Below, piece after piece: positions 25,159-44,295 of a stretch of 64,000 nucleotides of DNA. Position 1 is the first letter of the stretch. Each line of letters opens with the position of its first letter. Source of the DNA: a virus (Duplodnaviria > Caudoviricetes); IMG/VR virus record IMGVR_UViG_3300050159_000048. One strand, 5' to 3'. The translations under genes and the position numbers were made by a program. Below the pieces are notes generated by a model that made no database searches, was not told where the DNA came from, and saw nothing but the letters and a program-made list of their open reading frames with translations.

Positions 25159-26265
25159 TCACACCGGTTCAAATCCAGTGCGGCCCTCTTTCAATGTGTT
25201 AGGGATCACGGGTTGTCCATACATCCAGTGTCTGGTTGTATTGACGTGGCCTTTGCGAACGTATTTACCGACCATTTGTTTGAACTGACTGAAGTGGAAA
25301 GGCTCGTCAACACGAATGACATAGCCTTCAACCTCGCCTCTGGCGGCTTCGCGTTGCTGCTTCAGGGTGCTATATGATTGCTCAATCTTGGCTCGATCAT
25401 ACTCGCCCCAGTAAATCACCGGGCATGGAGTGACGCCAAGCAGTTCATACCACTGCAGCGTGTCTTGCCAGGTCAGGATGTGATTTGTGTCATCCCACAT
25501 GGCAAAACCATACGCATATGTTTCGAGGTCAACATATGTAATCGAGTGCTTTGCGTACATATTTTCGACGCTGAGCCTCCAACCTTCTGGAATGTCGTGT
25601 TGGAACTGAGAGGCGAACGCACGGATCCAATCACGAGACGGGTGTCCACCAGAAGTGACGGAGCGAGCATGCATGTAATCGTTGTAGATTGACGTGTTTT
25701 CACCGTCCAATTTCTCCATCACGACAACCTTTCGGCCTTCGAAGATGGAAACGTCTGGCATCATACGATCGTCATCGTGCATGCCCGGAGACCACGGCAA
25801 ATGGAAGGTTCGGGGGTATTTGACGTACTTGACAAAATCCCCAATCACGCCACCTTCAGTCAGAACCTTTTGGACGCTCTCGTCGTTAAACAGTTCGCCC
25901 CGCAGCCTGCGATTATCGTCAAGGATTACATTACCCCACTTATCGTATACGGTGTCGGTGTACATATGGGGAGGGAGGATTGGTTTGGTGATGCCGGCAT
26001 ATTCCCGAATTTGCTCAACAGTGATCTGAGTTCGTTCACACGCAAGGTGATGCTCGGAACATACGGATGCACCGTTGTTCAAGTGATATCCCTGACAATC
26101 ACCAAACAACCTTCGCTCAATTATATGATGGGCATCAACCGCTGGTGCCCCACACACAACGCAGCGGTAAGCGTCACGTTGGAATGTATGCTCACGAAAC
26201 TGATCACGTGTCAGTCGTTGATTGGTGGTGCAGCACGAGCTTGCACCAGCTGATAAATTGCTCAT
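25159..26265 (-). CDS. HNH-domain/RNA ligase fusion protein
   Basis: N-term CVVC..DAHHI..NGASVC..HH; C-term KYPRTFHL, EKLDGEN, EGYVIR, KYVR. Confidence 0.88.
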   Translation of the reverse strand: MSNLSAGASSCCTTNQRLTRDQFREHTFQRDAYRCVVCGAPAVDAHHIIERRLFGDCQGYHLNNGASVCSEHHLACERTQITVEQIREYAGITKPILPPHMYTDTVYDKWGNVILDDNRRLRGELFNDESVQKVLTEGGVIGDFVKYVKYPRTFHLPWSPGMHDDDRMMPDVSIFEGRKVVVMEKLDGENTSIYNDYMHARSVTSGGHPSRDWIRAFASQFQHDIPEGWRLSVENMYAKHSITYVDLETYAYGFAMWDDTNHILTWQDTLQWYELLGVTPCPVIYWGEYDRAKIEQSYSTLKQQREAARGEVEGYVIRVDEPFHFSQFKQMVGKYVRKGHVNTTRHWMYGQPVIPNTLKEGRTGFEPV

Positions 26266-26947
26266 CTGTCATATCTCGTTTCATTACGTTGATCATTTTA
26301 TGCACCCACTGAACATTGTCAACAGTATACCCTTTTGTTGAATCTATTCTATCTAGTGAGGCAGTGCATTTCTTATTCCAAGCTGTTCCAAATTCAATAT
26401 CCACCCCGCTTAACGCACATCGTTTTTGTTGGGCTACAAAAATATCCCAACCTTCCTGGGGGGTTAGTTCAAACGGAATATTTCGCTTCGCCGCACCACA
26501 TTTCCACCCACCCCATCGTGATCCGTATATTTCTTCATACCCTGTAAACGAGGCTTGGCGGCCATTGTTTTGTCGAACTTGATGGAAGGCAGCACATCCT
26601 GGGACTCCACAAGTTTTTCTACCGCCGTTGATAATCTTTCTTGTGACATCTTGGACAGGATTCCCACATTCACAACGACCAATGATATTCCATTCATGAT
26701 ACTTGTCATTGTAAATGAAGGCCTCAACAGTAATGGAATTGAACTGTTGACCAACCAAGGATTGGTCTGGAAGTGTCCGCGGGGGATACTTTCGTCTGAG
26801 CGGTAATCCTTGTTCACGTAAGTATCGTTTGATTGGTGCTTCTCCGACCTTAAGTTGTTTGCATATTTGTGTGACCGGAACGAGAGTGTTGTACAGCTCG
26901 TTGATTAGCTGCTGTTCTTGTTCTGTGAACTGACGTAGTGGTTGCAT
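26204..26947 (-). mobile_element. Free-standing HNH homing endonuclease
   Basis: CALSG..ASLDRIDSTKGYTVDNVQWVHKMIN; N-terminal HTH-like region; late promoter at 26975-26982. Confidence 0.88.
26295..26322 (-). promoter_or_regulatory. Sigma70-like promoter embedded in HNH 3' end
   Basis: GTTGACA-16-TAAAAT, about 30 nt upstream of ligase ATG 26265. Confidence 0.6.
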
Positions 26948-26974
26948 GTGGTGTTCCGTTCAAGACGTTGAAGG

Positions 26975-26982
26975 TATTTATG
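26975..26982 (-). promoter_or_regulatory. Late promoter CATAAATA for HNH endonuclease
   Basis: 28 nt upstream of ATG 26947. Confidence 0.6.
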
Positions 26983-27027
26983 CAACTCCCTTCTGAACTA
27001 CCAATCATTTGCGTCACTTAAATTCTC

Positions 27028-27153
27028 TTATTTGAACAGCCGACGTTCAATAATGTGGTGAGCATCAACAGCCGCAGCGCCACAAACAACGCATTTGTGG
27101 TGATCGCGGTTGAATACGCTTTCGCGGAAGACGTCTCTGGATAGTAGTATCAT
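27028..27153 (-). pseudogene. Orphaned 5' stub (41 aa) of the HNH-RNA ligase gene
   Basis: MILLSRDVFRESVFNRDHHKCVVCGAAAVDAHHIIERRLFK*; 28/37 residues identical to N-terminal region of 25159-26265. Confidence 0.9.
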
Positions 27154-27178
27154 GGTAGTTTTCTGGATTTTGTTAAGG

Positions 27179-27207
27179 ATGATACGGTATCACCCAAGGT
27201 CAAGCAA
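27179..27207 (-). promoter_or_regulatory. Sigma70-like promoter of the ligase stub
   Basis: TTGCTT-17-TATCAT. Confidence 0.5.
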
Positions 27208-27227
27208 CTACCAAAGATTACTAGTAA

Positions 27228-27473
27228 TTACAACCGCTTGATATCTGCGCCAACAATAGTGCATTCAAACGTGTCTTCTGACAGCTTCTTGGTCACACGC
27301 ACGCCATACAGATCAATGTCGTCTGTTTCGATTTTGTCAATTGTGCTGCCAACAGTCGCATTACCTTTGATGTTGACGGTCGTCCAAGAGTGGCCAGTAA
27401 TCTCACGCGTGCCGTTGGGGTGGATCTTTTCTACTGCGTTGAGAACAGGTTTAGTGAGGATTTCGTAAGTCAT
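27228..27473 (-). CDS. Hypothetical protein
   Basis: ATGA-coupled to DHFR. Confidence 0.6.
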   Translation of the reverse strand: MTYEILTKPVLNAVEKIHPNGTREITGHSWTTVNIKGNATVGSTIDKIETDDIDLYGVRVTKKLSEDTFECTIVGADIKRL

Positions 27474-28180
27474 TTGCGTCTCCAGACCGTAAAGCGCAAG
27501 TCAGGAGCGCTTTCAGCCTTAAACATTTTGTCCATGTTGAAGTGTTTGAGCACATAGTTCACGGGGAAGAACAGATCAGCTTCAACATCCTTGTTTACCA
27601 CAGTGATGTACGCCGTATCCGCTTTCGCGATTCCCTCACGATATATGCGCTCGCCGCCGATGAAGAACACCATCTTACTGATGTCCTCATCGATGATGTA
27701 CTTATCAACCTCCCCAATCGAAGTGACTGCCGTTGCATTATCCCGAGGCAGAGGACTGGAGGTAACCACAAAACATCTACGGTTAGGTAGCACACTACTT
27801 TGTGCCTTGTCGCCAAGACGTTTGTTGATATCATCGTACGTGGCACGACCCATCACACAGATTTGGTTCGACGTGGTCTGTTGAAACCACTTGAAATCTT
27901 CCGGATAATTCCACGGAATTTCCCCATCTTTGGAGAACCCACCTTTCTCGTCAACCGCGACAATTGCAGCGTATTGGCGCCGCGGAGCAGTATTGATCTC
28001 GTGCTGCGTCAGTTGAGCAAAGTGTGCTGCTTTCATCGCTTCAATTTCATGAACGCGTTGTTCGGCTCGGTGCTTGAGACGCGCTTCAAGTTCCACACGC
28101 ACTTGTTCCTTCTGCTCGGGAGGCATCCCGGTAGTAAACTCTTCAAATGCGCGTTTTTGATGGTCACTCATCATCGTCAT
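27470..28180 (-). CDS. folA: Dihydrofolate reductase with ~65 aa N-terminal extension
   Basis: AIVAVD..GGF..GEIPW..PEDF..F, VMGRAT, LPNR, IGGERIY, ADLFFP. Confidence 0.92.
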   Translation of the reverse strand: MTMMSDHQKRAFEEFTTGMPPEQKEQVRVELEARLKHRAEQRVHEIEAMKAAHFAQLTQHEINTAPRRQYAAIVAVDEKGGFSKDGEIPWNYPEDFKWFQQTTSNQICVMGRATYDDINKRLGDKAQSSVLPNRRCFVVTSSPLPRDNATAVTSIGEVDKYIIDEDISKMVFFIGGERIYREGIAKADTAYITVVNKDVEADLFFPVNYVLKHFNMDKMFKAESAPDLRFTVWRRK

Positions 28181-28421
28181 GGGTTTGCAGATCCTCTACG
28201 ATAGTTCTACGGCGGCGAGCCGGCGGCATGCGAACTGTGTCTTTGTACAGTTCGTAATATTCGTCAAATTCAGTGTGATCGGTGTTGCGGATGAAGTCCT
28301 TGAAGTCCATCAGCTGATCAGATTTTTGATCAGGTGTCAGTTCAGGGAGAGCCCAAATTTCTTGGCGTCGTCCTTCTAGAATGATACTGTACTTACTGCT
28401 AACACCATCACCGTGAATCAT
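28164..28421 (-). CDS. Hypothetical protein
   Basis: Coupled ORF. Confidence 0.5.
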   Translation of the reverse strand: MIHGDGVSSKYSIILEGRRQEIWALPELTPDQKSDQLMDFKDFIRNTDHTEFDEYYELYKDTVRMPPARRRRTIVEDLQTHDDDE

Positions 28422-28828
28422 ACGAAATCTTGCTCCATTATTGGGTTCCTGAGACAGGCCATCATGCTGATCCGCGCCTCTTCGTACCGCGGATCGTGAT
28501 GAAGGATATTCTCCCGCATCTGCGGCGTTAAGTCAAGGAAGTAACGATCAACGGACAGGCCGCACAGACCGCACCCCAGCAGGTGCGCTACAGATAAGAA
28601 ACGAAATTGTTGCCGTCCAACCTGTACGATATGGCGAACATTCCTAACCACCGGTTGTTTTTCAGCCATTAGCTTTGATGCAAACTGAGCGGCAGCTAAT
28701 TCTGCTGCTCTTGCGGTTGGTCCAATGTATACGTATTGGTTAGATGGATCGCCAAGATCCACCTCACCCATCAATAGATCAACATATTGAGTTGTTTGTT
28801 CATGATTCTTTTTCACGTAATGTGTCAT
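28418..28828 (-). CDS. Hypothetical protein
   Basis: ATGA-coupled to ligase C fragment. Confidence 0.6.
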   Translation of the reverse strand: MTHYVKKNHEQTTQYVDLLMGEVDLGDPSNQYVYIGPTARAAELAAAQFASKLMAEKQPVVRNVRHIVQVGRQQFRFLSVAHLLGCGLCGLSVDRYFLDLTPQMRENILHHDPRYEEARISMMACLRNPIMEQDFV

Positions 28829-29625
28829 AGCATAGCCTTCAGTTCGTCTTGAGAAATTACAGTAACGCCCAAATCGCGCGCCTTCACTGCTTTCCCAGAT
28901 GTGCTGTTGGGCTCTGCTGTGACCAGATACGTGGTCTTGCTGCTAACTCCGGTGCTCATCACACCACCCACATCAACGATTTGCGCTTCTAGTTCTTTGG
29001 AGCGGAACCCAGTGAACACGAACGACTTACCAGACAGATGGCCTTGTTTCTTCGCAACGAATGCGGCGATCGACACATACTTATCAATCGCGCTAAGGAA
29101 CTTCAAGAAAGTGGGGTAGCCAGCAACAATCTTCTTGGCCGTCTTGACGTCGAAGCCTTCCACAGCAACGATTGCATTCAGATCGGCACACTTTGCCATA
29201 TCACCAGCAAATGCTTCTTCCAGTTTCTTCATCTTTCGCACCCCAACGCCGCGTCCGAACGCGGCGCACGATCCCATCAGCACGTGCATCGGGATGTTGG
29301 TGAAACGCTCGCGCATGTTGGTGAAAATCTTCTTACCAATTGCCATACTACCGACCAAGCTGCCGATGTCTTCCAGCGTCAGAGGAATGATCTTTTCAGG
29401 AGTATCGAACCCCATGTCGAACATTTGGCGCAGATTGCCTTCACCGAGGTGAGGGATGTCAACGGATGAGAAGAAGTCAACCAGACGTTCAAACCGAGCA
29501 GTTTCGTTGTTTGCAGCATCAACGGCTACTGCATCGACCCCTGTCTCATTCCAATGCCAATCACCTAGGTTATCCAGTTGAGCGTTAAACCATGTTTCGT
29601 ATGCTTGTTTGTATTCGGGGGTCAT
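28825..29625 (-). CDS. ligA: NAD-dependent DNA ligase, C-terminal fragment (HhH + BRCT)
   Basis: WNETGVD, GVGVRKMKK HhH, BRCT LSGKSFVFTGF..GVSSKTTYLV..K..KARDLGV; GGAG SD. Confidence 0.9.
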   Translation of the reverse strand: MTPEYKQAYETWFNAQLDNLGDWHWNETGVDAVAVDAANNETARFERLVDFFSSVDIPHLGEGNLRQMFDMGFDTPEKIIPLTLEDIGSLVGSMAIGKKIFTNMRERFTNIPMHVLMGSCAAFGRGVGVRKMKKLEEAFAGDMAKCADLNAIVAVEGFDVKTAKKIVAGYPTFLKFLSAIDKYVSIAAFVAKKQGHLSGKSFVFTGFRSKELEAQIVDVGGVMSTGVSSKTTYLVTAEPNSTSGKAVKARDLGVTVISQDELKAML

Positions 29626-29634
29626 GGGGTTCTC

Positions 29635-29642
29635 CATAAATA
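29635..29642 (+). promoter_or_regulatory. Late promoter CATAAATA for endonuclease
   Basis: Overlaps the antisense GGAG SD of ligase C fragment. Confidence 0.55.
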
Positions 29643-29667
29643 AACGGAATGACATCACTTACCGTGT

Positions 29668-29696
29668 AGTATACGGTTGAATTTCGAAAAGATCAA
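29668..29696 (-). promoter_or_regulatory. Sigma70-like promoter for ligase C fragment
   Basis: GTTGATC-17-TATACT. Confidence 0.7.
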
Positions 29697-29698
29697 CA

Positions 29699-30442
29699 AT
29701 GAAACGACTAACATTTGACCAATTTGTCCAAAAGAGTAGGCTCATACATGGGGACAAATATCAGTACACGACCTATCATAAGAATTCTGTTAAGACAGAA
29801 ATAATTTGCCCCAACCACGGATCATTTTGGCAACGACCACTGGATCACATGCGTAGCGATGGTTGTCCAGTGTGTAAGTTTGAACACCTTGCTTCACTAA
29901 AGCGTGGAAATGTTGCATCGTTTATTAAGCGTGCTATTAATGTGCACGGAGACGTATACGATTATTCGCAAGTAATATATGTGAACGCTATTACGCCTGT
30001 TGAAATAATTTGTCCCAACCACGGATCATTTTGGCAAACTCCTGATAAGCACACTTCAGGCCAAACTCGCTGTCCCAAATGTTCACAACAATCGTCGCAT
30101 GGAGAGGCTGAGATTGAAAGGTGGTTAGACCAGCACGGTATTCAATACGAACGAGAGAAGCGGTTCGATGATTTGTGTGGTAGTACCCCAAATTCACGGC
30201 TGCGGTATGACTTCTTCTTACCAGCTTACAACATGCTGGTAGAGTTTGATGGCGAACAGCACTTTACCCCGGTTCGTACAAAGGGTAAGCTATCAACCGA
30301 GCAGGCTGTCGTCAAACATCAACGTACAGTTGAAAACGACGGTAAGAAAACAGCGTATGCGGAGAAGCATGGGTATCAGCTTCTCCGCATACGATATGAC
30401 CAGGACATCAATTCTCACCTTGCAGCGCGGGTGCGGTTATAG
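29699..30442 (+). mobile_element. Free-standing homing endonuclease (DUF723-like repeats + PD-(D/E)XK Vsr/DUF559-like nuclease), antisense within ligA
   Basis: IHGDKYQY, repeated ICPNHGSFWQ, RYDFFLP..LVEFDGEQH. Confidence 0.85.
29798..30037 (+). repeat. 36-bp direct repeat (29798-29833 and 30002-30037) encoding the endonuclease Zn-binding repeats
   Basis: gaaataatttg(c/t)cccaaccacggatcattttggcaa, one mismatch. Confidence 0.9.
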
Positions 30443-30722
30443 TGGGCGTGATTTCGTTTGAAGTGTTCGACCTTTCGGCATGTATGTGCTTGATGTTAAT
30501 GAGGGCAATTGGTATGTTGCCATACACACTACCTGTACCGATCCATTCATCCTTCTCATACAACTCCATTTGCATTTCTGGTGTCGGTCGACAACCATCC
30601 ATCCTAACAGTAACCTTTGCGTCACCCAAGTGTGGTTTTGCTTCCCGAAACCACACTTTAATTTGACAAGCAGGGCTGGTGAGAGGGGGACATTGCCAAT
30701 ACCAGAGCGTATAGTGTCTTTT

Positions 30723-31916
30723 TCATTTCATATTCTCCAAGGGCATGGGTTCAATGCACCGCAAAATTTGCGGAATGACATCGCCCGCGCGGGTAATTTC
30801 AATCTTGGCTCCAGGACCGATGCCGTTGTCCTTGATGAACTTAGCATTAAAGCCAGTCAGGTTGGAAATGGTGACGCCAACCAGATCAACCGGATGAATC
30901 TGAACGCGCGGCTTGTAGTAGCCATCCTTCGACACGTTCCACTCAACTTGTCGCACGGTAGCAACAGCAAGGTTTGATGAGTCAGCAACCTTGAACTTGA
31001 CCGCGTATTCTGGATTCAGCTCATCGGTTGCCAGGCGAGCGCGGGTTGCTGCTGCGTCGATGTCAATCACAATACCGTCAATTTCGTATTCCGTAACAGC
31101 CCGACGGTCGTTCAGCAGCTTGGTCAGGCGATCGTCGTTCCAATAGTCGGCTTGACCAATTGAGTATTCAGCAACCTTGAAGCCCCACTTTGCCAATTGT
31201 TCAAGTTGGTCAACCTTGGCCATCTTGCTGCCAACAATTTCGTACGCGACCGTATCAATCGCAGTGTACACTTCGGGATGGTTCTCCGACGAATTCATCA
31301 AGCCGGAGACCATGTTGCGGGGATTTTTGTAGATTCGGCCACCACGCGCAAACTTGCCGGTATTGATTCGACTAAATGATGCAGGGGAGATGATGTTTTC
31401 CGCACGAATCGTCACCGTGTCGCCAGTCAAGTTTGTGATTTGCTTGGGGACATTGTGAATTTTAGAAACGTGCCGTGTGATATCTGCACCCTCTTCGCCG
31501 TCGCCGCGTGAATATGCGATTTGCAGCTTGCCGTCAGTGTCGTACACAAGCATTGCGCTTGCACCGTCCAACTTATCGCTGATCACAATCAGATCGGTTG
31601 TCAGACCATGTTTGGCAATCCACCTGACGTAATCGCCTTGGTACACTTGATTCAGTGAGCCCATCTTGTATGGCAGCTTGATTTTTCCACCACGAACTGC
31701 ACTACCAATGCCAGTGAAGTAGGCATCAGCAGGACTGGTCTTCTGAGCGTACTGCTTCAGAGCGTCGTACTGGTTATCTTCCATCAAAGGCTCTTGATCA
31801 TTGAAGAACGCGTCATCCGCTGCTTTGAGCAACTCAATAACCGTGGCAATTTCAACGTCTTCGTATGAGCCGAAAACGAACATTTCTTCAACAAGGCGCT
31901 TATGATCAGTAGACAT
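30723..31916 (-). CDS. ligA: NAD-dependent DNA ligase, N-terminal fragment (adenylation + OB)
   Basis: DKLDG (adenylated Lys), YSRGDG..G.DIT, EIDGIV, AVKFK, TRAGDVIP; ends right after OB fold. Confidence 0.93.
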   Translation of the reverse strand: MSTDHKRLVEEMFVFGSYEDVEIATVIELLKAADDAFFNDQEPLMEDNQYDALKQYAQKTSPADAYFTGIGSAVRGGKIKLPYKMGSLNQVYQGDYVRWIAKHGLTTDLIVISDKLDGASAMLVYDTDGKLQIAYSRGDGEEGADITRHVSKIHNVPKQITNLTGDTVTIRAENIISPASFSRINTGKFARGGRIYKNPRNMVSGLMNSSENHPEVYTAIDTVAYEIVGSKMAKVDQLEQLAKWGFKVAEYSIGQADYWNDDRLTKLLNDRRAVTEYEIDGIVIDIDAAATRARLATDELNPEYAVKFKVADSSNLAVATVRQVEWNVSKDGYYKPRVQIHPVDLVGVTISNLTGFNAKFIKDNGIGPGAKIEITRAGDVIPQILRCIEPMPLENMK

Positions 31917-31932
31917 GGGTTCTCCAAACGAA

Positions 31933-31964
31933 AAGAGGACGGATGCTGAATTATCCGTCCTCTT
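31933..31964 (-). terminator. Hairpin after thyA overlapping the ligA promoter
   Basis: aagaggacggat...atccgtcctctt. Confidence 0.6.
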
Positions 31965-31978
31965 CGTGGATATGTCAA
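31950..31978 (-). promoter_or_regulatory. Sigma70-like promoter for ligA
   Basis: GTTGACA-17-GATAAT. Confidence 0.7.
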
Positions 31979-31981
31979 CGC

Positions 31982-32995
31982 TTACACTGCGACGTCCATA
32001 GTGATCGTTGGGTGTGATTGATAACCTTCAATAACAAAGTCTTCATATTTGAAGTCATCGATGTCAGAGACAGGTCGGGTGAACTTGAACTTTGGAGGAT
32101 CGTACGAATCCAACAGGAGTTGGCCACGCAGTTTGTCCACATGATTTTCGTAGATGTGAACATCGCCGCCATTCCACACAAAGTCTCCAGGGACCATGTT
32201 TGCAACTTCACACAACATTCGCAGTAAGATGCTGTATTGGACGATGTTGAACGGCACACCGAGACCCACGTCACATGAGCGCTGATTCAACATCAAAGAC
32301 AACTCATACCGCGGAATGTTGGCATCATCGAGCCAGGCAGACACATCTGACTCATTATCCAGAACGTCGTTGAGGCTGTATGTCTTACCAGCAATCTTCA
32401 TCCGCTCCACTTCTGTTAGAGGACGAGCGTAACATTGGAATGTGTAGTGACACGGAGGTAGAGCTTGGTTGCCCATAGCCACATTCTGATCAAACGACAG
32501 TGATGTATCAGGTAGAACTGAGGGATTCCAGCCAGTCACAATCATCCGACGATCTTCTGGGTTGGTGCGTAGGAGATGAACCAGTCGACCAATTTGATCA
32601 ATTGGTTGTTCATCGACATAGAACAGAGGTTCATCCGCTGGATTATCAAACTCTGTGATCACGTAATTGGGCCAGCTGCGCCACATAACACCATACACTG
32701 GACCGAGCTGACCGGACTTATCAGCCCACTCATCCCAGATCGTGACATTGTGCTCCTTGAGATAGCTGATGTCACCAGTGCCCATCATATACCACAAGAT
32801 TTCACGAACGATACCGCGGGTGAACATCTTCTTTGTGGTCAGCATTGGGATAGTGCCGTCTCGCAGATTGAACCGCATTTGGTATCCAAAAACCGAACGG
32901 GCGGGTTTACCTGTCCGGTTTTGTTTAACAATGCCGTTATCTAAGACGTACTGTACCAAATCGTGGTATTGCTTATCGTGTTTATTTAGAGTCAT
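31982..32995 (-). CDS. thyA: Thymidylate synthase
   Basis: TTKK, IWDEW, RRMIV, LPPCH, QRSCDVGLGVPFN, HIYENH. Confidence 0.97.
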   Translation of the reverse strand: MTLNKHDKQYHDLVQYVLDNGIVKQNRTGKPARSVFGYQMRFNLRDGTIPMLTTKKMFTRGIVREILWYMMGTGDISYLKEHNVTIWDEWADKSGQLGPVYGVMWRSWPNYVITEFDNPADEPLFYVDEQPIDQIGRLVHLLRTNPEDRRMIVTGWNPSVLPDTSLSFDQNVAMGNQALPPCHYTFQCYARPLTEVERMKIAGKTYSLNDVLDNESDVSAWLDDANIPRYELSLMLNQRSCDVGLGVPFNIVQYSILLRMLCEVANMVPGDFVWNGGDVHIYENHVDKLRGQLLLDSYDPPKFKFTRPVSDIDDFKYEDFVIEGYQSHPTITMDVAV

Positions 32996-33170
32996 TTTTC
33001 ACTACAAAGAGTACGTCGTCCCGTACCCACTTTTTCCAGGTTCCGACGATCGTGTCCACAGGCGTAACCTCGTGGACAATATCAACACGCTTACTGGGGA
33101 GGGTATTGGTGGCGGTCCTCCCCGTCTTGCGCACCTCTACGTTGTCGTAGACGTATGTTACTTCACTCAT
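32982..33170 (-). CDS. Small hypothetical protein
   Basis: ATGA-coupled to Thg1. Confidence 0.55.
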   Translation of the reverse strand: MSEVTYVYDNVEVRKTGRTATNTLPSKRVDIVHEVTPVDTIVGTWKKWVRDDVLFVVKNDSK

Positions 33171-33907
33171 TCTGCCACCTTATCGATGTACACGTGTTGT
33201 TCAATATATGCCCGGTCTTGGGAGAAGATCGGGATGTTCTTATCAACCCCGTCGCGGGTCACGCATGTACCCCGTCGCATCCACGTTGGCAAATCATTCC
33301 AGTTGGCGCTGTGTTCGGCCATCAGCATATCTTGAACTTCACTGTTGCTCTTGCCGTGCATTTGCTTGGAAGAGAAGAAGTGACGACCATACATCTGCAC
33401 ACTGTTCCTGGACGCGTCGTTTTGGCGCCACAAGAAGTAATTGGCAACTTCTTCTTTGGGGAGGTTATACGCTCGGCTATCAAATTTAGCCATATCTTTC
33501 ATAGACATTGGAGTGCGAACTTCACCAAACTTGAAGTTGAAAGCTGCGGTGGCTTCAGCGGCTGATACCGATACAATCTTCTGTAAGTTGTTGTCAAACC
33601 AAGCTTCCGTCTCAAATGTATCCCAGTCACGCAGAAGTAGTGAGATTTCATCACTCTGTGTATAGCCGAGGACACATCCTTGCATGGTGTCAACAAGGTG
33701 TTGTGTGGTGAATGTCATCACTTCATTCATGATCACGCTGAAAGGTGTCTTGTCGAGTGAGACATCATATTTTGATAGGCACTTGGTCCAGGTGTGGAAC
33801 GCTTTGCCGTCAATGCGCACGATTACGGGCGTGCGCTTCATCAGATCACTTTGCGTGACCGATTCGTACCGCTTCATGCGGTCGCCCAAACTGTCTTTGG
33901 TTGTCAT
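33167..33907 (-). CDS. thg1: tRNA-His guanylyltransferase / Thg1-like 3'-5' polymerase
   Basis: LGDRMKRYE, VRIDGKAFH, YTQSDEISL, FDSR, YFLWRQND. Confidence 0.95.
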   Translation of the reverse strand: MTTKDSLGDRMKRYESVTQSDLMKRTPVIVRIDGKAFHTWTKCLSKYDVSLDKTPFSVIMNEVMTFTTQHLVDTMQGCVLGYTQSDEISLLLRDWDTFETEAWFDNNLQKIVSVSAAEATAAFNFKFGEVRTPMSMKDMAKFDSRAYNLPKEEVANYFLWRQNDASRNSVQMYGRHFFSSKQMHGKSNSEVQDMLMAEHSANWNDLPTWMRRGTCVTRDGVDKNIPIFSQDRAYIEQHVYIDKVAE

Positions 33908-33965
33908 GGTAGGGTAATCCTTAGTTGAAATTACCCTACCATTTTACTCTAGGTCAACAATTACC

Positions 33966-34748
33966 TCAACCAGCTAAAGCATTCATTTCTTCAGCCGCGA
34001 TGATCCACGATTTCACAAAATCACTACGAATGATGTCGTGCTGCGTGAATGTTACGTTTGTAAATGCACCCATGCGGTCCGTAACTTTCATCATCATTTC
34101 CATACCGCTAACTTCACCCTTCTTACGAAGGTCGGTTTGGGGCAGGTCTCCTGCAAGAATGATGCGAGAATTGCGTCCCAGGCGAGTCATGATGGTGTTA
34201 ATCTCATGGAACGTCATTGATTGAACTTCGTCCACCACAATCACCGCATCATCCCAAGTAAGACCGCGAATGAAAGACGTGGTTTGGAAATCAACCATGT
34301 TGCTTTCCTTCATGTCTTGGTATGTTGTCGAGCGACCCATCAGTTCGTGGAAGATGTCCTTGTAAGGCATTTCATACAGGGCTGCCTTTTCTTCAAGTGT
34401 ACCTGGCATGAAGCCGAGGTCGCGGGTAGGTACGGCGGATCGAACAAGAATGATCTTCTTGCATTCGGATTCTGGGTTCAACACTTCCTGCAATGCCAGA
34501 TAGATTGCCAAGAATGTCTTACCAGTGCCGGCAGAACCTGATGCTACGATGTTTTGTCCCTCCATGAAATCGTAGATCATTTCGCGCTGTGCTGGTGTAA
34601 GTGGCTTGATGTCGTGGAGATCGTGACGAGACCAGTGCTTGCGCTTCGTCGGACCTTCTGTGACTGCTCGTCCGTTAGCGAGCAGTGCTTGTTCTAGTTG
34701 ATATACGTTATTGCGAACTGATGCTTTAAGGGCACGTTTACGGGACAT
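33966..34748 (-). CDS. phoH: PhoH-like ATPase
   Basis: GSAGTGKT, RSAV, GFMPG, IRGLT, DEVQ, GDLPQTD. Confidence 0.95.
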   Translation of the reverse strand: MSRKRALKASVRNNVYQLEQALLANGRAVTEGPTKRKHWSRHDLHDIKPLTPAQREMIYDFMEGQNIVASGSAGTGKTFLAIYLALQEVLNPESECKKIILVRSAVPTRDLGFMPGTLEEKAALYEMPYKDIFHELMGRSTTYQDMKESNMVDFQTTSFIRGLTWDDAVIVVDEVQSMTFHEINTIMTRLGRNSRIILAGDLPQTDLRKKGEVSGMEMMMKVTDRMGAFTNVTFTQHDIIRSDFVKSWIIAAEEMNALAG

Positions 34749-36587: not shown

Positions 36588-37175
36588 TTAGTTGAGTTTG
36601 ATTGGGTGCAGGATTCGACTGTCCTTTGTCACTCGACTTTTCAGAAATTCCATCTGATCCGCAAGGATGTTGCGGTTCATCAGGATCAGGTATTCTGATC
36701 GGTTCGGAGCGTACGGCAGATACAGAAGCTTCATGCCAGCTTGTTCCAGCGTGCGGTCATCCTTCAGTTTGTTGCAGCCGCCACATGCAGTGACAACGTT
36801 AGTCCAGACGTCCGGGCCACCACGAGAGCGCGCCACAATGTGGTCACGGGTCAAGTGGTCATGACCGAATTCGTTACCGCAGTATGCGCAAATGTGTTGG
36901 TCACGTCTGAACAGGGCTCGATTGGTAAGAGTGGGAATGCGAAAGCGACCCTTATCACCAATCTCACCCTTGACTGCAATGATCGTGTTCAGATCCATTG
37001 ATGATTGTTCACCCGTTAGGGCGTTTTCACCACCATAAATCGTGAACTCATCCTCTCCATAGACCCATGCGATGAGGTCTTTTGCCTTGTAGTAGGCAGC
37101 ATCCTCATATGTCATCCAACGGCATGGATTGCCTGCGACGTCAAGTTGTAGAATCAGCGGGTGTTCTCTCGCCAT
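36588..37175 (-). CDS. HNH endonuclease (bacterial McrA-like family)
   Basis: LFRRD..CAYCG..LTRDHIV..SRGG..W.NVVTAC..CN..K. Confidence 0.9.
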   Translation of the reverse strand: MAREHPLILQLDVAGNPCRWMTYEDAAYYKAKDLIAWVYGEDEFTIYGGENALTGEQSSMDLNTIIAVKGEIGDKGRFRIPTLTNRALFRRDQHICAYCGNEFGHDHLTRDHIVARSRGGPDVWTNVVTACGGCNKLKDDRTLEQAGMKLLYLPYAPNRSEYLILMNRNILADQMEFLKSRVTKDSRILHPIKLN

Positions 37176-39382: not shown

Positions 39383-41578
39383 ATGCCAAATCCGTCATAT
39401 GTCAAGTCCATGAATGTTAACTTCAGCGATAGGAAACAAGATGTAGTACAAATTGTGTCATCGCCAAACATTGTTGCACTTTGGTATTCGATGAGTGATG
39501 CTGATAGGGCCAATCTTGCAACATTGGCTACAGCCAACGGAGGTTCTCTACCACTACCGTCAATGGCGCTCGCACATTCAACCCTAATGCCGAACGGAAT
39601 GAGTTGGTGGCAGACGTATCAAGGTATGTGCAAAACCATTCCCGCAAGCCTCAAGTCGTCTGTTGGATCAGCCGCTGATGGAATGAGTTCGGCTGATGTT
39701 TCTAAAATCCAGTCGTTGGTGTCAGGGGATGAATTTCGTGAGTACCCGCTGAGACAGTACGGTGATGCGCGCAGGGCCACCCGCTTTAAGGCCGCGGGCG
39801 CCATGGACATCATTTCGACCGAGCTGCGCATCACCGGCTACACGTTCACCGACTCGGACGTCGGCAAGACCGCGGCGATCAAGGGCCCCGGCGTTGGCTC
39901 CCCAACCTCAGACTTTGCTGTCGTCGCCAATGACGGCGTGCTGATCGGCACCATCCTGTCGGTCAGTGGTGGCAAGGCATACCTGTCGGTGGCGGCCACC
40001 CAGACGGCATCCAACTGCGAAGTGATCTTCGGGTGGCCGTGCGACGACGCGTTCGTGGCCGCCGTGGCCAAGTGCCGTGCCGACTACGTAGCCGACGGCG
40101 TGCCGGGCAAGGTCATCATTCCCGGTGGTGACTACATGGTCACTGGCCGCCTGCCGGTCAGTTCGGGCGTGTCGATGGGAGGCTGCCGACGCGACGGCAC
40201 GAGTGTCTACGTGTGCAAGGTCGTCGCCAACGCCGACGACTCGAACACGGCGCCCTGGATTGCTCGCGAAAGCTCCTTTGCAGTCGGCGGGTACTACGAC
40301 TGCGTGTGCCTGGAGAATTTCAGCCTGATCGGCACCTTCTTCGCATCCAGCGGGCCCTACGGCAGCGACATGAAGATGATCTCGATGGATGGCACGAACC
40401 AGTCGTTTGTGCGGCACATGCGGATCGTGGACAACCCGAGCACGGCGCTGGGCTACGATAAGTCCATCGCCTGCGAGCTGGCCCACAACCTCATCATCCG
40501 CCCCGCACGGCTGGCAAGGCCCAGCACCAGCGGCAACTCGGGCGGCGCGGGCGGCTCCGGCATCGGTATCGCGGTCGGCGATACCGAGCTGTCGATGCAC
40601 GTCCACCACAACACCATCATCGGCACACTGGCGGCGGGCATGGGCAACTTGGCCGCAGGCGCGGTCGGCCGCAGCGGTATCAACATCGAGGCGTCAGCCG
40701 AGACGCCTAACCCGCCCGCATTCGGCGGTTCCGGCCTCATCATCGAAGCCAACATCGTCCGCGGCTTCTTCAACGGCGTCGTGGACAGCGGCGCGCAGGG
40801 TACGCGCATCGTTCACAACGTCATCAGCCAGTGCGTCCACGGGATCAAGGCGGGCAGCAACGGGGTGACATACGGCCGCGTAGCGCGCGACACGCTGATC
40901 GCACACAACGATATCAGCAACTTGTTCACCTGGAATGCCCAGTACAGCGCGGGCATCATGGTCAACAGCGCCGTTGGCGCGACTGCCAACGGTCAGTCTG
41001 GTATCGCGCTCGCCTATGGTCGCTCGCGCGTGCTGGACAACACCATCCGCGCCGCCGCTGGCGGGTACGGAATCGCGCTGATCGTCAACGCGGGAAAGCC
41101 GCTGCTCGGACTTACGGTGCGCGGCAACCTGGTGTCCGACTGCGACCTGTCGGGCATCCGGTTGTTCGGTGGGTTCATCGACTTGGAGCTTACTGACAAC
41201 ATGATGATCTCCAACGGCCGCGCTGCCACCGCGGGGAACAAGGCTCCGATCCGGTTCGATACCGGCACCACCTGGGTGGGCGGCAAGTACTCGGGCAATC
41301 ACTACCTGGACCCCGAGTCGAGCCCGACGCAGGACGCGGCGCCGACCGTCAACAACGCAACGCTCACGAACGTGTGGGCAGCCGAAAAGGTGTTGGCGCT
41401 CGCCAGCAACGCGGTCGCCAACTTGCCGGCCGCTTCGGCTGCGTACAAGGGATTCCGCGCGACCGTGACGGATGCGTCCACGGCGTACACGTCGGCCAAC
41501 GTTGGCGTCACGGTCGCGGCCGGCGGCGCCAACACCGCGCCTGTGTTCTGCAACGGCACCAACTGGGTGATCGGCTGA
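39383..41578 (+). CDS. Tailspike/tail fibre with pectate-lyase-like parallel beta-helix
   Basis: Repeated N-x-I beta-helix pattern, G/A/S/N rich, C-terminal TVAAGGAN..PVFCNGTNW motif; high GC after ~39770. Confidence 0.8.
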   Translation: MPNPSYVKSMNVNFSDRKQDVVQIVSSPNIVALWYSMSDADRANLATLATANGGSLPLPSMALAHSTLMPNGMSWWQTYQGMCKTIPASLKSSVGSAADGMSSADVSKIQSLVSGDEFREYPLRQYGDARRATRFKAAGAMDIISTELRITGYTFTDSDVGKTAAIKGPGVGSPTSDFAVVANDGVLIGTILSVSGGKAYLSVAATQTASNCEVIFGWPCDDAFVAAVAKCRADYVADGVPGKVIIPGGDYMVTGRLPVSSGVSMGGCRRDGTSVYVCKVVANADDSNTAPWIARESSFAVGGYYDCVCLENFSLIGTFFASSGPYGSDMKMISMDGTNQSFVRHMRIVDNPSTALGYDKSIACELAHNLIIRPARLARPSTSGNSGGAGGSGIGIAVGDTELSMHVHHNTIIGTLAAGMGNLAAGAVGRSGINIEASAETPNPPAFGGSGLIIEANIVRGFFNGVVDSGAQGTRIVHNVISQCVHGIKAGSNGVTYGRVARDTLIAHNDISNLFTWNAQYSAGIMVNSAVGATANGQSGIALAYGRSRVLDNTIRAAAGGYGIALIVNAGKPLLGLTVRGNLVSDCDLSGIRLFGGFIDLELTDNMMISNGRAATAGNKAPIRFDTGTTWVGGKYSGNHYLDPESSPTQDAAPTVNNATLTNVWAAEKVLALASNAVANLPAASAAYKGFRATVTDASTAYTSANVGVTVAAGGANTAPVFCNGTNWVIG

Positions 41579-41638: not shown

Positions 41639-42211
41639 ATGGCTTATACAAACGAAGACTATAAACGCGTTGCAGAACAACTAAAGTGCGAACCAGCAGC
41701 GGTTGCCGCAGTTGCTGCCGTGGAATCTGCTGGCAGTGGTTTTGATCCCGAGGGATTTCCAAAGACCCTATTCGAAGGACATTGGTTCTACAAGCTAACA
41801 AACGGTAAGTATGCTCAATCTCATCCCGATCTGTGCTATCCGAAGTGGACCAAGCAGTTCTACGGAAAGACCTGGCGTGAGGAGAAGGATCGTCTTAATC
41901 GAGCGATTGCTCTAGATAGGAATGCGGCATTGATGTCTGCGTCGTGGGGTTCGTTCCAAATCATGGGATACAACTTCGCTAAGTGTGGGTACAAAACCGT
42001 GCAGCAGTTCGTTAATGATATGTGTAAGGGCGACGGTGCTCAACTTGATGCGTTTGCAGAGTTTGTTCACGAATCCGGAATGGCTGACGAGCTTCAAGAT
42101 AAGCGGTGGGCTGATTTTGCGCGCCTGTATAATGGCCCTGGATACGCACAAAACAGCTACGATAAGAAGCTAGCGGCAGCATATGCAAAAGCCCTACAAA
42201 CCCTAGGTTGA
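41639..42211 (+). CDS. N-acetylmuramidase endolysin (DUF3380-type)
   Basis: AVAAVES.G.GF, LFEGHWF, SASWG.FQIMG.N, FARLYNGP.Y..N.YD. Confidence 0.92.
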   Translation: MAYTNEDYKRVAEQLKCEPAAVAAVAAVESAGSGFDPEGFPKTLFEGHWFYKLTNGKYAQSHPDLCYPKWTKQFYGKTWREEKDRLNRAIALDRNAALMSASWGSFQIMGYNFAKCGYKTVQQFVNDMCKGDGAQLDAFAEFVHESGMADELQDKRWADFARLYNGPGYAQNSYDKKLAAAYAKALQTLG

Positions 42212-42237
42212 CTTAACGCATTCTGATAACGTATAAT
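42208..42237 (+). promoter_or_regulatory. Sigma70-like promoter
   Basis: GTTGACT-18-TATAAT. Confidence 0.7.
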
Positions 42238-42263
42238 CGCCTCCATCAATCCAATTTGGGTTA

Positions 42264-42767
42264 ATGGAGGCGATTTTGTTTCTAGACGTTTCATCTATAA
42301 CTGACTGGCGGTCCGCAACAAAGACTCGCCCCATTGTGGCTAAGCACGTCACAGCTCTCACCACAGATCAGCGTTTGCTTTCACAGCTGCTGATTGGTAC
42401 GTTGGAAGGGCGTGAGCCTATCGACGCACATAATGTGATCTGTGTTGGTGAGCATGGTGATGCTTGGCAATCTACTCCAAAGAAGTTGCTGGCAAAGTAC
42501 AGCATTTCTAGTATTGACCAGGATGGGTGGTTGGTATGCGACCCCAAACCCGACAACGCTGTTGATTGTTTTGAGGTCACGTCTGATCACATTGACGGCG
42601 ATCAATTCTACGTAGTTGGTTTGTGGGGTGAGACGTTGCCGGATGGTACAAAGAACGTACAAACCGGTCTTCGAGGCGATATCGTCTGTCGAAGCCAAAC
42701 CGACCAATCAGACATCTGGATTGTTCGTCGAAAATTGTTCAATTCAACATACGAAATCAGAGGATAA
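42264..42767 (+). CDS. Hypothetical protein (weak PGDYG-family resemblance)
   Basis: TLEG.EPI..ICVGEHGD.W and ..GDIVCR...D.WIVRR..F..TY halves. Confidence 0.55.
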   Translation: MEAILFLDVSSITDWRSATKTRPIVAKHVTALTTDQRLLSQLLIGTLEGREPIDAHNVICVGEHGDAWQSTPKKLLAKYSISSIDQDGWLVCDPKPDNAVDCFEVTSDHIDGDQFYVVGLWGETLPDGTKNVQTGLRGDIVCRSQTDQSDIWIVRRKLFNSTYEIRG

Positions 42768-42796
42768 CATGAAAATCCGTACAACGAGTGATGAAA

Positions 42797-43462
42797 TTAT
42801 GCAAGACGCCAGCCTTTTGCCGTTCGTTGAGTGCCTTTAATGAGGGCTGTAATCATAGGACGAGGGACGTTGTGCGTTGTATGAAAGTCCTGTCTCGTTC
42901 CCACAAAAGTCTCACCTAATATATGTTGGAAGGTCAGCACTTCTGGATTGAAGTTAGGGTTGGCTGTCCCTACGCCGGAGCGAGATCGGCGAATGCGTTT
43001 CATATCTTCCGAACGTGTTTGTCGCAGAATAGCTGCCAATGCTTCACCGTGTCGCTCTTCGTATGATTTTCCGGTATACCGGTCTTTTGCACCCTGGGAT
43101 AAGCGTTGACGTACTTCTGAGGTATGTGTCTTACCCCACATGCCGTTGGAAGTTCCATGCAGGATTGGTCCTCTATCACCACCCAGTGTCATATTGTATC
43201 CAATGTATCGCTTGTGCGTTCCATTTTCCAATATGAATCTCTCCTCCGCCCACCAAGCGTCTTGTTCTGTGTATGCTACGAATAACACTTCCGATGTCCA
43301 GTTGCGTGCTCCATGTTTTCGTATGGCTCGGTGAAAAGGTGTTTTTGACCCACCATTCGCCGCGCTGATATGTTGGGAGAAACGCTCTTGCATGGTGTGT
43401 TTAGTGTAACCAACATATGACTTGCCGTTGACTGTATTTGTGTGTTTGTAGATAGTGAACAT
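42797..43462 (-). mobile_element. GIY-YIG homing endonuclease (Seg-like) with NUMOD-type repeats
   Basis: TIYKHTN..NGKSYVGYT, ERF..H, E..FI..GYNMT.GG, MWGKTHT.E. Confidence 0.92.
43428..43456 (+). promoter_or_regulatory. Sigma70-like promoter embedded antisense in GIY-YIG 5' end
   Basis: GTTGACT-17-GATAGT, 41 nt upstream of ATG 43498. Confidence 0.5.
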
Positions 43463-43479
43463 TCAATGTCTCCGTTATC

Positions 43480-43487
43480 TATTTATG
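43480..43487 (-). promoter_or_regulatory. Late promoter CATAAATA for GIY-YIG
   Basis: Followed by GGAG SD and ATG 43462. Confidence 0.65.
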
Positions 43488-43497
43488 AAAGATCAAT

Positions 43498-44295
43498 ATG
43501 AAGTTGAGGATTTGTTCAGATTTACACCTTGAATTTGCTGACTATGAAGTTCCAGCTCTCGAAGGAGACAAGGAGACGGTGTTGGTGCTTGCTGGTGACA
43601 TCGGCCTCGTGCACAAAAAGAGCAACATGACGGAGCGGTATATTCCGTTTCTGGCGCGGGCGAGTGCTCAGTTTCGTAAGGTGGTGATGATTGTTGGTAA
43701 TCACGAACATTACCACGGATCGTTCAAGAAGACTCACGCCCTGCTGCGAGCTGCCATCGAGGCAGCTGGATTGCAGAATGTGGCTTTGCTGGAAAAGTCG
43801 TCCTGTGTGGTGGATGATGTTGCGTTCATTGGATCCACTTTGTGGACTGAATGTGACAATCAGAGTCCGTATGCAAACATGCTGTTTCGTGGGATGAATG
43901 ATAGTCGTCTTATCCGCACAGGCATCAACGACCCATACGAGCGAGCGTTTAGTGCTACCGCGTCATGGGTGGATTTTTCGAAGGCTGTGATGTATACAAT
44001 GGATGAGCTTGCTAAGCAGCGAGCTGATGGCAAGAAGACGGTTGTGGTTACTCACCACGCTCCGTCACATCTGTCGATCCATCATTTGTACGTTGGGTCA
44101 CCCATGAATATGTTCTATGCATCCGATTTGTCAAATTACATTCGAGAGGCGAAGCCTAATTTGTGGATCCATGGTCATACCCACCACCAGTTTGATTATG
44201 CCCTATACGACACTCGTGTGGTTGCGAATCCTCGCGGATATCACGGACACGAGGACACGTCAGGGTTTAACGAAACTTTGGTGATCGAAGTATGA
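43498..44295 (+). CDS. Calcineurin-like metallophosphoesterase
   Basis: SDLHLE, LAGDI, GNHEHY, THHAP, WIHGHTH, NPRGY. Confidence 0.93.
   Translation: MKLRICSDLHLEFADYEVPALEGDKETVLVLAGDIGLVHKKSNMTERYIPFLARASAQFRKVVMIVGNHEHYHGSFKKTHALLRAAIEAAGLQNVALLEKSSCVVDDVAFIGSTLWTECDNQSPYANMLFRGMNDSRLIRTGINDPYERAFSATASWVDFSKAVMYTMDELAKQRADGKKTVVVTHHAPSHLSIHHLYVGSPMNMFYASDLSNYIREAKPNLWIHGHTHHQFDYALYDTRVVANPRGYHGHEDTSGFNETLVIEV

Follow-up and report, generated by a model that had tools for sequence, protein, structure and literature searches.

Three nuclease genes associated to conserved phage genes

The 64,000-nucleotide stretch of DNA analysed here (hereafter, the window) corresponds, on the reverse strand, to bases 42039-106038 of one IMG/VR virus record of 183,069 bases (IMGVR_UViG_3300050159_000048; Duplodnaviria, Caudoviricetes), and contains three nuclease genes, of the HNH, PD-(D/E)XK and GIY-YIG families, which are associated to genes for, respectively, an RNA ligase, an NAD-dependent DNA ligase and a metallophosphoesterase (Table 1). 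The NAD-dependent DNA ligase is encoded in two pieces, LigN and LigC, on both sides of the PD-(D/E)XK gene. The other two nuclease genes lie between a complete target gene and a short copy of its 5' end, designated here as the stub; the complete gene, or LigC, is termed the restart. Among relatives, all three nuclease genes are either present or absent at identical sites. As developed below, we consider it likely that they are free-standing homing endonuclease genes, with no intron or intein, that are spreading by intron-less homing among large soil and litter phages. The phage itself is probably of jumbo size, because the 183,069-base record is only ~52% complete as estimated by CheckV.

A megablast search with positions 26000-34000 of the window retrieved no match among GenBank phages, that is, no phage in GenBank is close at the DNA level; the nearest named phages by their NAD ligase are the Xanthomonas phages XacN1 and Xoo-sp13, with at most ~49% identity. 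Our comparisons thus rest mostly on metagenomic relatives (loci numbered with an L below), which show 50–74% protein identity. A pattern scan of IMG/VR for relatives of the GIY-YIG gene yielded none, and these were obtained through a protein database instead.

Table 1. Features of the three nuclease loci, with their positions in the window
Feature	Position	Strand	Remarks
RNA ligase, complete	25159-26265	-	HNH-like N-domain and PF09414; phrog_24030 at 2e-127 from residue 17
HNH homing endonuclease gene	26204-26947	-	247 aa; phrog_3322/1035/3118
G-TTGACA-16-TAAAAT promoter-like site	26295-26323	-	inside HNH motif codons, 29 nt before restart ATG
CATAAATA late-type box	26975-26982	-	27 nt before HNH ATG
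RNA-ligase 5' stub	27028-27153	-	41 codons, native start, ends ...HHIIERRLF then K-stop
LigC	28825-29625	-	266 aa from linker Met, HhH and BRCT part; BRCT match
Relic, right copy (S)DVIPFIYGEP	29623-29656	-	out of frame; supplies GGAG and ATG of LigC
CATAAATA late-type box	29635-29642	+	56 nt before PD-(D/E)XK gene, within ligase relic
G-TTGATC-17-TATACT promoter-like site	29668-29697	-	beside PD-(D/E)XK start codon, aimed at LigC
PD-(D/E)XK (Vsr-like, DUF723/DUF559) nuclease gene	29699-30442	+	antisense to ligase; Pfam DUF723/DUF559, phrog_559 at 5e-50
Cassette cargo, 22-codon ORF overlapping LigN stop (ATGA), then 11-bp hairpin	30628-30726	-	from sequence
LigN 3' end, left copy of duplicated segment	30723-30782	-	last ~20 codons, including tail EPMPLENMK-stop
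LigN	30723-31916	-	397 aa, adenylation and OB domains; PF01653, PF03120
Native G-TTGACT-18-TATAAT promoter	42207-42237	+	overlaps muramidase stop; drives phosphoesterase in relatives, orf167 here
orf167, function not assigned	42264-42767	+	missing here in relatives; parts native promoter from stub
Phosphoesterase 5' stub	42769-42792	+	8 codons MKIRTTSD, own good ribosome-binding site, one base past orf167 stop
GIY-YIG homing endonuclease gene	42797-43462	-	221 aa, antisense to neighbours; PF01541, phrog_314 at 2e-31
G-TTGACT-17-GATAGT promoter-like site	43427-43456	+	overlaps first GIY-YIG codons, aimed at phosphoesterase gene
CATAAATA late-type box	43480-43487	-	17 nt before GIY-YIG ATG
Metallophosphoesterase gene, complete	43498-44295	+	PF00149; homologues start at same residue

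As deduced from Pfam, PHROGs and fold, all three genes encode products of recognised homing-endonuclease families. The PD-(D/E)XK gene product consists of two N-terminal DUF723/treble-clef repeats followed by a DUF559-like C-terminal domain, and its residues D171, E182, D184 and K217 are invariant in an alignment of 22 homologues. Searches with Foldseek using the C-terminal domain of an AlphaFold2 (AF2) model (predicted local distance difference test, pLDDT, 91.9) retrieved Vsr and the catalytic domain of I-Bth0305I (probability 1.00; template modelling (TM) score 0.52–0.67, normalised by the target); the PD-(D/E)XK label was settled by this fold search. PDB sequence searches with the three nucleases did not retrieve anything significant.

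The first-pass annotation had described the three cassettes as intron-less, and this agrees with our results. No Rfam family was found in positions 24500-45000 (E ≤ 0.1), which leaves no candidate for a group I or II intron; Pfam likewise revealed no intein domain at the three loci, where the nucleases are separate open reading frames (ORFs), each with its own start. An intron-encoded endonuclease was rejected because there is no Rfam match and because the flanks consist of ORF ends, the relic and promoters; likewise, a fractured gene with a split intein was rejected due to the absence of intein domains and of spare length in LigN plus LigC.

Late-type boxes and outward promoter-like sites

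The presence of a late promoter for each nuclease gene, also proposed in that annotation, is sustained by the octamer CATAAATA, which lies before the three of them. It appears 11 times in the window, versus 1.33 ± 1.16 expected, a number that was reached by none of 100 shuffles, and the 183-kb record contains 26 copies, 14 of them lying 17–31 nt ahead of a called ATG; it also precedes the portal, phrog_211 and tail-tube genes. We therefore have an A/T-rich octamer near TATAAATA that is enriched and situated shortly before structural genes, as corresponds to a T4-type late promoter. In relatives, the box ahead of the nuclease gene reads TATAAATA in L003 and L130, and CATAAGTA in L145, while CATAAATA occurs ahead of the nuclease copies, or of the scar that one of them left, in L129, L131, L149, L150 and L146-L148.

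The first reading of these loci also proposed an outward promoter of the type GTTGA(C/T)-N16-17-TAnnnT for the downstream gene. A G-preceded sigma-70-like site does exist at the three restarts, although the literal pattern GTTGAY-N16-17-TANNNT has a single match in the window, the site within the HNH gene, and we replaced it by a record-wide count of sigma-70-like sites. These are commonplace in the region (31 versus 22 ± 4.8 expected); in the whole record, 36 out of 215 lie 5–80 nt before a start, versus 9.4 expected, and 24 of these 36 carry a preceding G, therefore indicating that GTTGAC is a real feature of the early-type promoters of this phage. The three restarts have a G-preceded site, versus a background of 24 in 211 genes (~11%), and the chance of finding three out of three in ordinary genes is roughly 0.001, a post hoc figure.

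The outward sites at the ligase and phosphoesterase loci are found at conserved positions in relatives, including those with different nuclease codons in the overlap. In this way, GTTGA(C/T)...TATA(C/A)T is found beside the nuclease start in L131 and L149, and in a looser form in L130, L150 and the L129 scar, and the GIY-YIG site has counterparts in L145-L148 despite their differing nuclease N-termini.

A NAD-dependent DNA ligase in two pieces

LigN (397 aa) and LigC (266 aa) add up to 663 aa, compared to 643–655 aa for the intact ligases of L001, L002, L003, L005 and L029, so that the two pieces cover the whole protein with no loss. In L130, L131, L149 and L150, an antisense DUF723 gene likewise divides the ligase gene, with identical place and orientation, and all the examined split contexts except L129 show the order LigN, antisense DUF723 nuclease gene and LigC. 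In L129 the nuclease gene is deleted, leaving between intact LigN and LigC ORFs a scar of 150 nt, where the promoter and the relic persist together with the first nuclease codons. Both LigN and LigC are likewise intact in L131, L149 and L150, and the LigN of L130 is cut by the contig end. Additionally, we found at least 19 free-standing LigC-only proteins of 260–278 aa (41–67% identity), all with the same start point, in a search whose length filter leaves out full-length ligases.

The ligase segment from GDVIP to the linker Met is present twice, and this duplicated target piece of ~15 codons flanks the cassette; the copy at the end of LigN and the relic share an exact core of 12 nt, which was reached by only one in 2000 shuffles. 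The relic and the box are conserved in all six split loci (the window, L129, L130, L131, L149 and L150), in a module with the order nuclease start codon, outward GTTGA(C/T)-type promoter, relic (D)VIP(F)IY(G), GGAG and LigC ATG, and the late box is spelled by the relic codons on the opposite strand. At the relic site, the intact gene of L003 reads ...CCG TTT ATT GTT GGG, where two base changes yield the box. LigC starts at the native linker Met, found as Q/D-M-P in intact ligases. The reading frame of the relic agrees with that of LigC in L131, but not in the window. The LigN tail EPMPxENM is conserved in the window, L129 and L131. The cargo segment varies among relatives, with an ORF of 170 aa in L131 and nothing in L130, and the hairpin that follows the cargo ORF in the window is not significant (fold z −1.2).

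A tree built with the C-terminal 245 residues shows split alleles interspersed among intact ones, with 10 changes, which are no fewer than those obtained with shuffled labels. At least four of the changes are forced by well-supported branches, and the approximately unbiased (AU) test rejects a single clade of split alleles (p 2e-62). Similarity of the nuclease and of the ligase is also uncoupled: the window and L131 show 55% identity for the nuclease and 52% for the ligase, versus 41% and 67%, respectively, for the window and L130. In this comparison, which covered the ligase cassette, distribution is thus uncoupled from host-gene phylogeny. Interspersed alleles and uncoupled similarities are the mark of a widespread mobile cassette that homed repeatedly into a single site.

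The predicted complex of LigN and LigC scored 0.77, versus 0.21 for the best control, a mark that was reached by 51 of 78 solved complexes and by 2 of 108 mismatched pairs; this supports binding between LigN and LigC, although the prediction may merely recall the intramolecular packing of intact LigA. The predicted interface places the OB domain and the tail of LigN against residues 1–50 of LigC.

Two other observations concern relatives with an intact ligase. Positions 3393-3632 of L002, between the thymidylate synthase and the intact ligase genes, show a weak GIY-YIG match (35% over 86 residues) that may correspond to another nuclease gene. The thymidylate synthase (TS) of L003 (4179-5921) is encoded by a single ORF of 580 aa, where ~245 residues are inserted in frame between TS residues ~108 and ~133; no Rfam intron was found there, and this may be an intein-like or domain insertion.

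Two copies of the RNA ligase 5' end

In the window, the last 62 nt of the HNH gene overlap, in a different frame, the RNA-ligase restart, and the RNA ligase has an N-terminal extension of 16 residues encoded within the HNH 3' end, which is conserved in L003. The segment contained in the stub recurs at positions 26104-26214, within the full-length RNA ligase gene (tblastn E 1e-16), and the stub is 72% identical to the N-termini of the nuclease-free relatives, with which it has in common the start M-x-LL(T/S)RD. There is no HNH gene before the RNA ligase in L028, L029 and L150; these and other nuclease-free relatives contain DHFR or a small variable gene directly before it and, in general, the genes upstream of the RNA ligase vary between relatives. 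Conversely, L003 and L004 contain an HNH homologue with 49% identity in the same place; here too the RNA-ligase start codon falls within the 3' end of the HNH gene, the box reads TATAAATA, and these loci have their own stub (MAQLLTRDQFREGV...), which is shorter (~13 codons versus the 41 of the window).

The stub and the restart show 74% amino-acid and 60% nucleotide identity, with identical third positions in only 11 of 37 codons; the proportion of differences is about 1 for synonymous sites (pS) and 0.20 for nonsynonymous sites (pN). This divergence matches that of either copy from the orthologues of other phages. As a dead fragment could not keep its protein over such time, stub and restart most likely derive from different lineages that met recently, and the 41-codon stub looks like the dead 5' end of the recipient. 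Duplication in place was rejected as the main origin of the two copies, because silent sites are saturated and the divergence is at the level of orthologues.

These results modify what had been proposed at first for the duplicated or recoded piece of the target. Diverged copies are present at the three loci, but recoding is better read as a donor flank beside a recipient remnant; the comparison of silent and replacement changes that had been suggested as a check did show saturated silent sites, to the extent, however, that separates orthologues from different phages, which speaks against adaptive recoding.

An indel, G(D/E)CxG, is located exactly at the end of the window stub and is common to the two nuclease-carrying RNA-ligase alleles (window and L003), while nuclease-free alleles read (S/P)DGGYY at this position, which likely marks the cleavage and immunity region of the gene. 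Nucleotide identity to the closest relative, L028, is 61% in the first 41 codons of the restart versus about 71% downstream, a drop that is only suggestive of a co-conversion tract.

Separately, the RNA ligase of L129 (7105-9258 of an ENA contig of 195,828 bases) is a 717-aa fusion with LAGLIDADG_2 and RNA_ligase matches; the first of these places a fourth endonuclease family in the same target gene, as an intein or as an in-frame insertion.

The phosphoesterase locus

The phosphoesterase gene is the first of a phosphoesterase-coaE-coaD run. The order in the window is muramidase, native promoter, orf167, stub, GIY-YIG cassette, second promoter and complete phosphoesterase gene, and the frame of the stub runs on, antisense, into the GIY-YIG 3' end. 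The stub and the gene start with, respectively, MKIRTTSD and MKLRICSD, and among the 6104 ATGs of the record these two alone fit the family pattern M.[LVI]R..SD. GIY-YIG homologues of 53–71% identity occur in L145-L148, always antisense between the muramidase and phosphoesterase genes, with the CATAAATA box overlapping the phosphoesterase start codon in L146-L148. The GIY-YIG gene is missing from L132-L134, where a muramidase-phosphoesterase spacer of 54 nt holds the phosphoesterase promoter.

The short stub of the window looks like the dead 5' end of a recipient gene. It is the weakest of the three duplicated pieces, with 8 codons only, and among the four relatives carrying the GIY-YIG gene there is none in three and about four codons in L145; therefore, the stub is an accident of particular events and not a part of the element.

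Upstream of this locus, between the PRPP-synthetase and muramidase genes, the window contains a 731-aa ORF (39383-41578, plus strand) with a G+C content of ~62%, versus 48–50% around it, and without counterpart at that place in L132-L134 and L145-L147. It probably corresponds to a fibre- or lyase-like gene of recent acquisition.

Proposed insertion by one-sided repair and survival of the target genes

Our proposal takes as its base what is directly observed, that is, the anatomy of the loci, the enrichment and placement of the motifs, the same-site presence or absence of the genes, the conservation of the promoter/relic module and the scatter of split alleles on the ligase tree; from these we infer the cleavage sites, the direction of transfer, the activity of the promoters and that of the split ligase. 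In a mixed infection, the nuclease would be made late from the T4-like CATAAATA promoter, and would cut the nuclease-free allele at a conserved target motif. For the RNA ligase the putative motif is ...HHIIERRLF, for the NAD ligase it is GDVIP, where the OB domain ends, and for the phosphoesterase SD-LH. Repair of the break from the donor would then copy the nuclease gene along with donor flank.

In the RNA ligase and phosphoesterase cases, the nuclease gene sits at the extreme 5' edge of the target, where the gene further upstream differs between phages; since the upstream flank differs, the double-strand break would be repaired with homology on one side only. The 5' end of the recipient would be kept as a dead stub, and that of the donor, with its start codon and promoter, would become the new working front. 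For the phosphoesterase, a donor with muramidase-GIY-phosphoesterase and a recipient with muramidase-orf167-phosphoesterase would share homology only downstream of the break, and one-sided repair would thus produce exactly the arrangement seen in the window. In the NAD ligase, the cassette is located in the OB-HhH linker and does split the enzyme, into LigN and LigC, which would reassemble. LigN ends with the left ligase copy, and the right one has decayed to regulatory DNA, carrying the putative late promoter of the nuclease on one strand and the ribosome-binding site (RBS) and start codon of LigC on the other, adjoined by the outward sigma-70-like promoter.

The layout shared by the three nucleases that was proposed in the first-pass annotation is therefore real, in that boxes, outward promoters and duplicated pieces are all there and are kept in relatives, and the term self-rescuing cassette fits the outcome well. 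The idea that the target gene is left interrupted holds for the NAD ligase, but in the other two cases the nuclease gene precedes a target gene that is complete, and what remains as a stub is dead. Convergence of three families is not needed: a single repair mechanism, a promoter grammar in common and counter-selection of target-silencing insertions offer a simpler explanation. The common layout is thus best explained by a common mechanism of double-strand-break repair with co-conversion, by promoter grammar and by selection for an expressed target.

Several results weigh against this proposal. Besides the ambiguity of the complex prediction and the slightness of the support from the RNA-ligase identity drop, the promoter-like site inside the HNH gene is not kept in L003, so that it is a lineage-specific or chance match; the phosphoesterase stub, as described, is short in the window and shorter or missing in relatives. 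In addition, searches for hairpins that hide the RBS, in the style of T4, showed that the three nuclease 5' regions fold no better than shuffles (z −0.6, +1.2 and +0.6), which is a lack of support and does not count as evidence against T4-style control.

Alternative explanations

One further reading, of rather low probability, is that in this phage clade the nuclease genes travel as evolved split-and-rescue modules, composed of an antisense nuclease and a two-way early/late switch derived from a homing-site relic. In such a module the relic would also act as an operator of the nuclease, or as a decoy, by analogy with I-TevI, and the flanking direct repeats would allow a precise excision restoring an intact ligase, making the split reversible.

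It is unlikely that rescue evolved by duplicating a piece of the target in place, with silent sites being selected afterwards to block self-cutting and recombination between repeats, in an adaptive convergence of the three families. This would agree with silent sites that differ maximally in stub and restart despite a preserved protein, with the Arg and Ser codons of the phosphoesterase stub being switched between codon families and with the clear reshaping of the ligase relic into promoter and RBS. Nevertheless, a dead stub of 41 codons has no reason to be under selection at the protein level long enough to saturate silent sites, its divergence equals that of orthologues from different phages, and the indel of the restart also occurs in the other nuclease-carrying lineage, L003. 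Moreover, stub lengths vary (41 versus about 13 codons for the RNA ligase; 8, 4 or 0 for the phosphoesterase), which fits better with separate one-sided repair events than with a designed module.

We find it just as doubtful that homing has ended and the nucleases are domesticated, being kept for a benefit, such as the exclusion of co-infecting relatives, or because they hold the sole promoter and start of an essential neighbour, in which case the layout would be a sign of retention and not of mobility. The promoters and start codons of the target genes do lie inside or against the nuclease genes, an embedding that in T4 has been argued to favour retention (PMC2988022), and the arrangement is conserved among relatives at 40–70% identity. 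Domestication, however, does not sit well with the scatter of split and intact ligase alleles on the tree, with a nuclease similarity that is out of step with that of host genes, with the loss of the nuclease gene in L129, which left both ligase ORFs unharmed, or with the abundance of nuclease-free relatives.

Finally, that short similarities and promoter-like strings coincide by chance, or as annotation artefacts, around ordinary small genes is very improbable: the lack of enrichment of the strict early-promoter pattern (1 match versus 1.9 expected), the high frequency of sigma-70-like sites in the region and the 8 codons of the phosphoesterase stub would be in its favour, but it is already contradicted by the comparative data, with the three genes present or absent at the same sites and the ligase relic and box conserved in six loci, and also by the E-value of the RNA-ligase stub, the strong enrichment and good positioning of CATAAATA and the uniqueness of the phosphoesterase pattern.

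Other nuclease genes and duplicated flanks

We found other genes of these families in the same record. Outside the window there is a second PD-(D/E)XK gene (G000:C1:5896-6681; L143 897-1682), 37% identical to that of the window, which is antisense between a 105-aa ORF and a gene for a CCA-adding enzyme, with no stub. The ATG of this gene lies 20 nt after cTATAAATA, a box overlapped by the −10 of an outward G-TTGTCA-17-TATAGT site. Also outside the window, an HNH gene (G000:C1:~23050-23586) starts 6 nt after a CATAAATA box and directly adjoins the apparent end of a tRNA gene, and further HNH paralogues are located at 1491-1814 and 2288-2752. Within the window, positions 36588-37175 (minus strand) encode a 195-aa HNH/HNH_5 protein behind an early-type promoter, TTGACT-17-TATAGT; this gene is in the same place in L132-L134 and therefore behaves as a core gene and not as a mobile one.

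Flank-versus-flank similarity was examined in 72 IMG/VR loci of the PD-(D/E)XK family, five of which were above the 99th percentile of control pairs. This only shows that duplicated flanks are not unique to the window, in a test that misses short duplications, including the ligase and GIY-YIG cases of the window itself. Direct repeats of 20–30 codons flank the nuclease gene in L116, L060, L062/L064 and L050. Of the four loci examined individually, L116 has a pair resembling a stub and its restart at the protein level (16 of 25 residues identical); the repeats in L060 and L050 contain stops, and that of L062 looks like a DNA-level repeat.

Comparison with known systems

Free-standing homing genes of the seg and mob types from T4-type phages are transcribed from late promoters, and promoters of the downstream gene are embedded in them, favouring their retention (segG with gene 32; segA, segE, mobB and mobC); in these phages segD is antisense, and genes are split by mobE, mobA and a seg gene (PMC2988022). 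The non-splicing route that had been suggested at first as a general one was thus already established, with T4 seg/mob, Aeh1 mobE/nrdA and embedded plus late promoters (PMC2988022). The T4 genes resemble those of the window in that GIY-YIG or HNH genes occur between or inside conserved genes, are present or absent among related phages and spread by double-strand-break repair with co-conversion of flanks, and in having late and embedded promoters and, in one case (segD), an antisense orientation. Our loci differ in the participation of a Vsr-like PD-(D/E)XK family, in the antisense orientation of two genes out of three, associated to a compact two-way promoter module, in the survival of displaced target 5' ends as stubs and in the box, which is CATAAATA instead of TATAAATA. 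Unlike in T4, a translation-locking hairpin was not found at the three genes.

The two-piece ligase has a parallel in Aeh1, in which mobE splits nrdA into two ORFs whose products reassemble, with short tails derived from the insertion at the new ends (PMC3045599). In both systems the gene for an enzyme is in two ORFs, and here the conserved LigN tail EPMPxENM is within the predicted interface. In the window, however, the target is an NAD-dependent DNA ligase, the nuclease is antisense and from another family, at least 19 split alleles form a widespread and polyphyletic set, and the right repeat has been converted into promoter and RBS DNA. The Aeh1 case was reportedly described by Friedrich et al. 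in 2007 as a ribonucleotide reductase with genes in pieces.

One-sided, illegitimate repair has been published for T4-type phages: an element whose homology is limited to one side of the break is nevertheless acquired, via junctions at microhomology (PMC2988022). That work was experimental and used engineered intron donors, and the events in the window would be natural ones, of free-standing genes, as deduced solely from sequence. In I-TevI, an operator resembling the homing site overlaps the late promoter, resulting in autorepression (PMC2988022). The ligase cassette likewise has a target-like sequence at the nuclease late promoter, with CATAAATA within the target relic; in contrast to I-TevI, the relic has an obvious origin in a target duplication and also serves the downstream gene, and its role as operator is putative. 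The phage Vsr-like enzyme I-Bth0305I (PDB 3r3p), which is intron-encoded, has the same catalytic fold as the PD-(D/E)XK nuclease (Foldseek probability 1.00; target-normalised TM 0.65–0.67), whereas the gene in the window is free-standing, with its product having two N-terminal DUF723/treble-clef repeats and only 16–18% sequence identity with I-Bth0305I.

Outside phages, Paquin et al. are said to have found in 1994 a free-standing nuclease gene with a partial duplication of the target C-terminus at atp6 of Allomyces. More generally, in fungal mitochondria free-standing nuclease genes lie beside partial duplications of the C-terminus of the target, such as atp6 or cob (PMC6279837). As in our loci, there is a second, partial copy of the end of the neighbour gene, one working and one leftover, but those cases are organellar and affect the 3' end, whereas here the 5' end is affected in phage DNA, including a replacement of the promoter. 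Fractured genes with split inteins also have a nuclease gene between gene halves (PMC2677866), and differ from the ligase cassette in that this one has no intein halves and keeps the intact length.

In the open-access literature we found no description of a split NAD-dependent ligase, of a two-way promoter module derived from a target relic, of 5' stubs in phage genomes, or of a Vsr-like family beside HNH and GIY-YIG in one genome. The loci described here form a natural series of the entry of selfish nuclease genes, without intron or intein, with survival of the target gene, including intact alleles, split alleles, one allele still split after losing the nuclease and stubs of varied length. 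They also point to the source of the rescue, in one-sided repair with co-converted donor flanks, and to the reuse of target DNA as promoter and ribosome-binding site. They include what is apparently the first widespread two-piece NAD-dependent DNA ligase, a ready-made system for the study of ligase domain assembly and, on the practical side, a warning, as gene callers and pangenome tools would score such split genes as fragments. Precedents for all the ingredients have been published in T4-type phages, so that a specialist would be less surprised; these genes represent a well-supported new variation on the intron-less homing of T4-type phages, and not a new kind of element.

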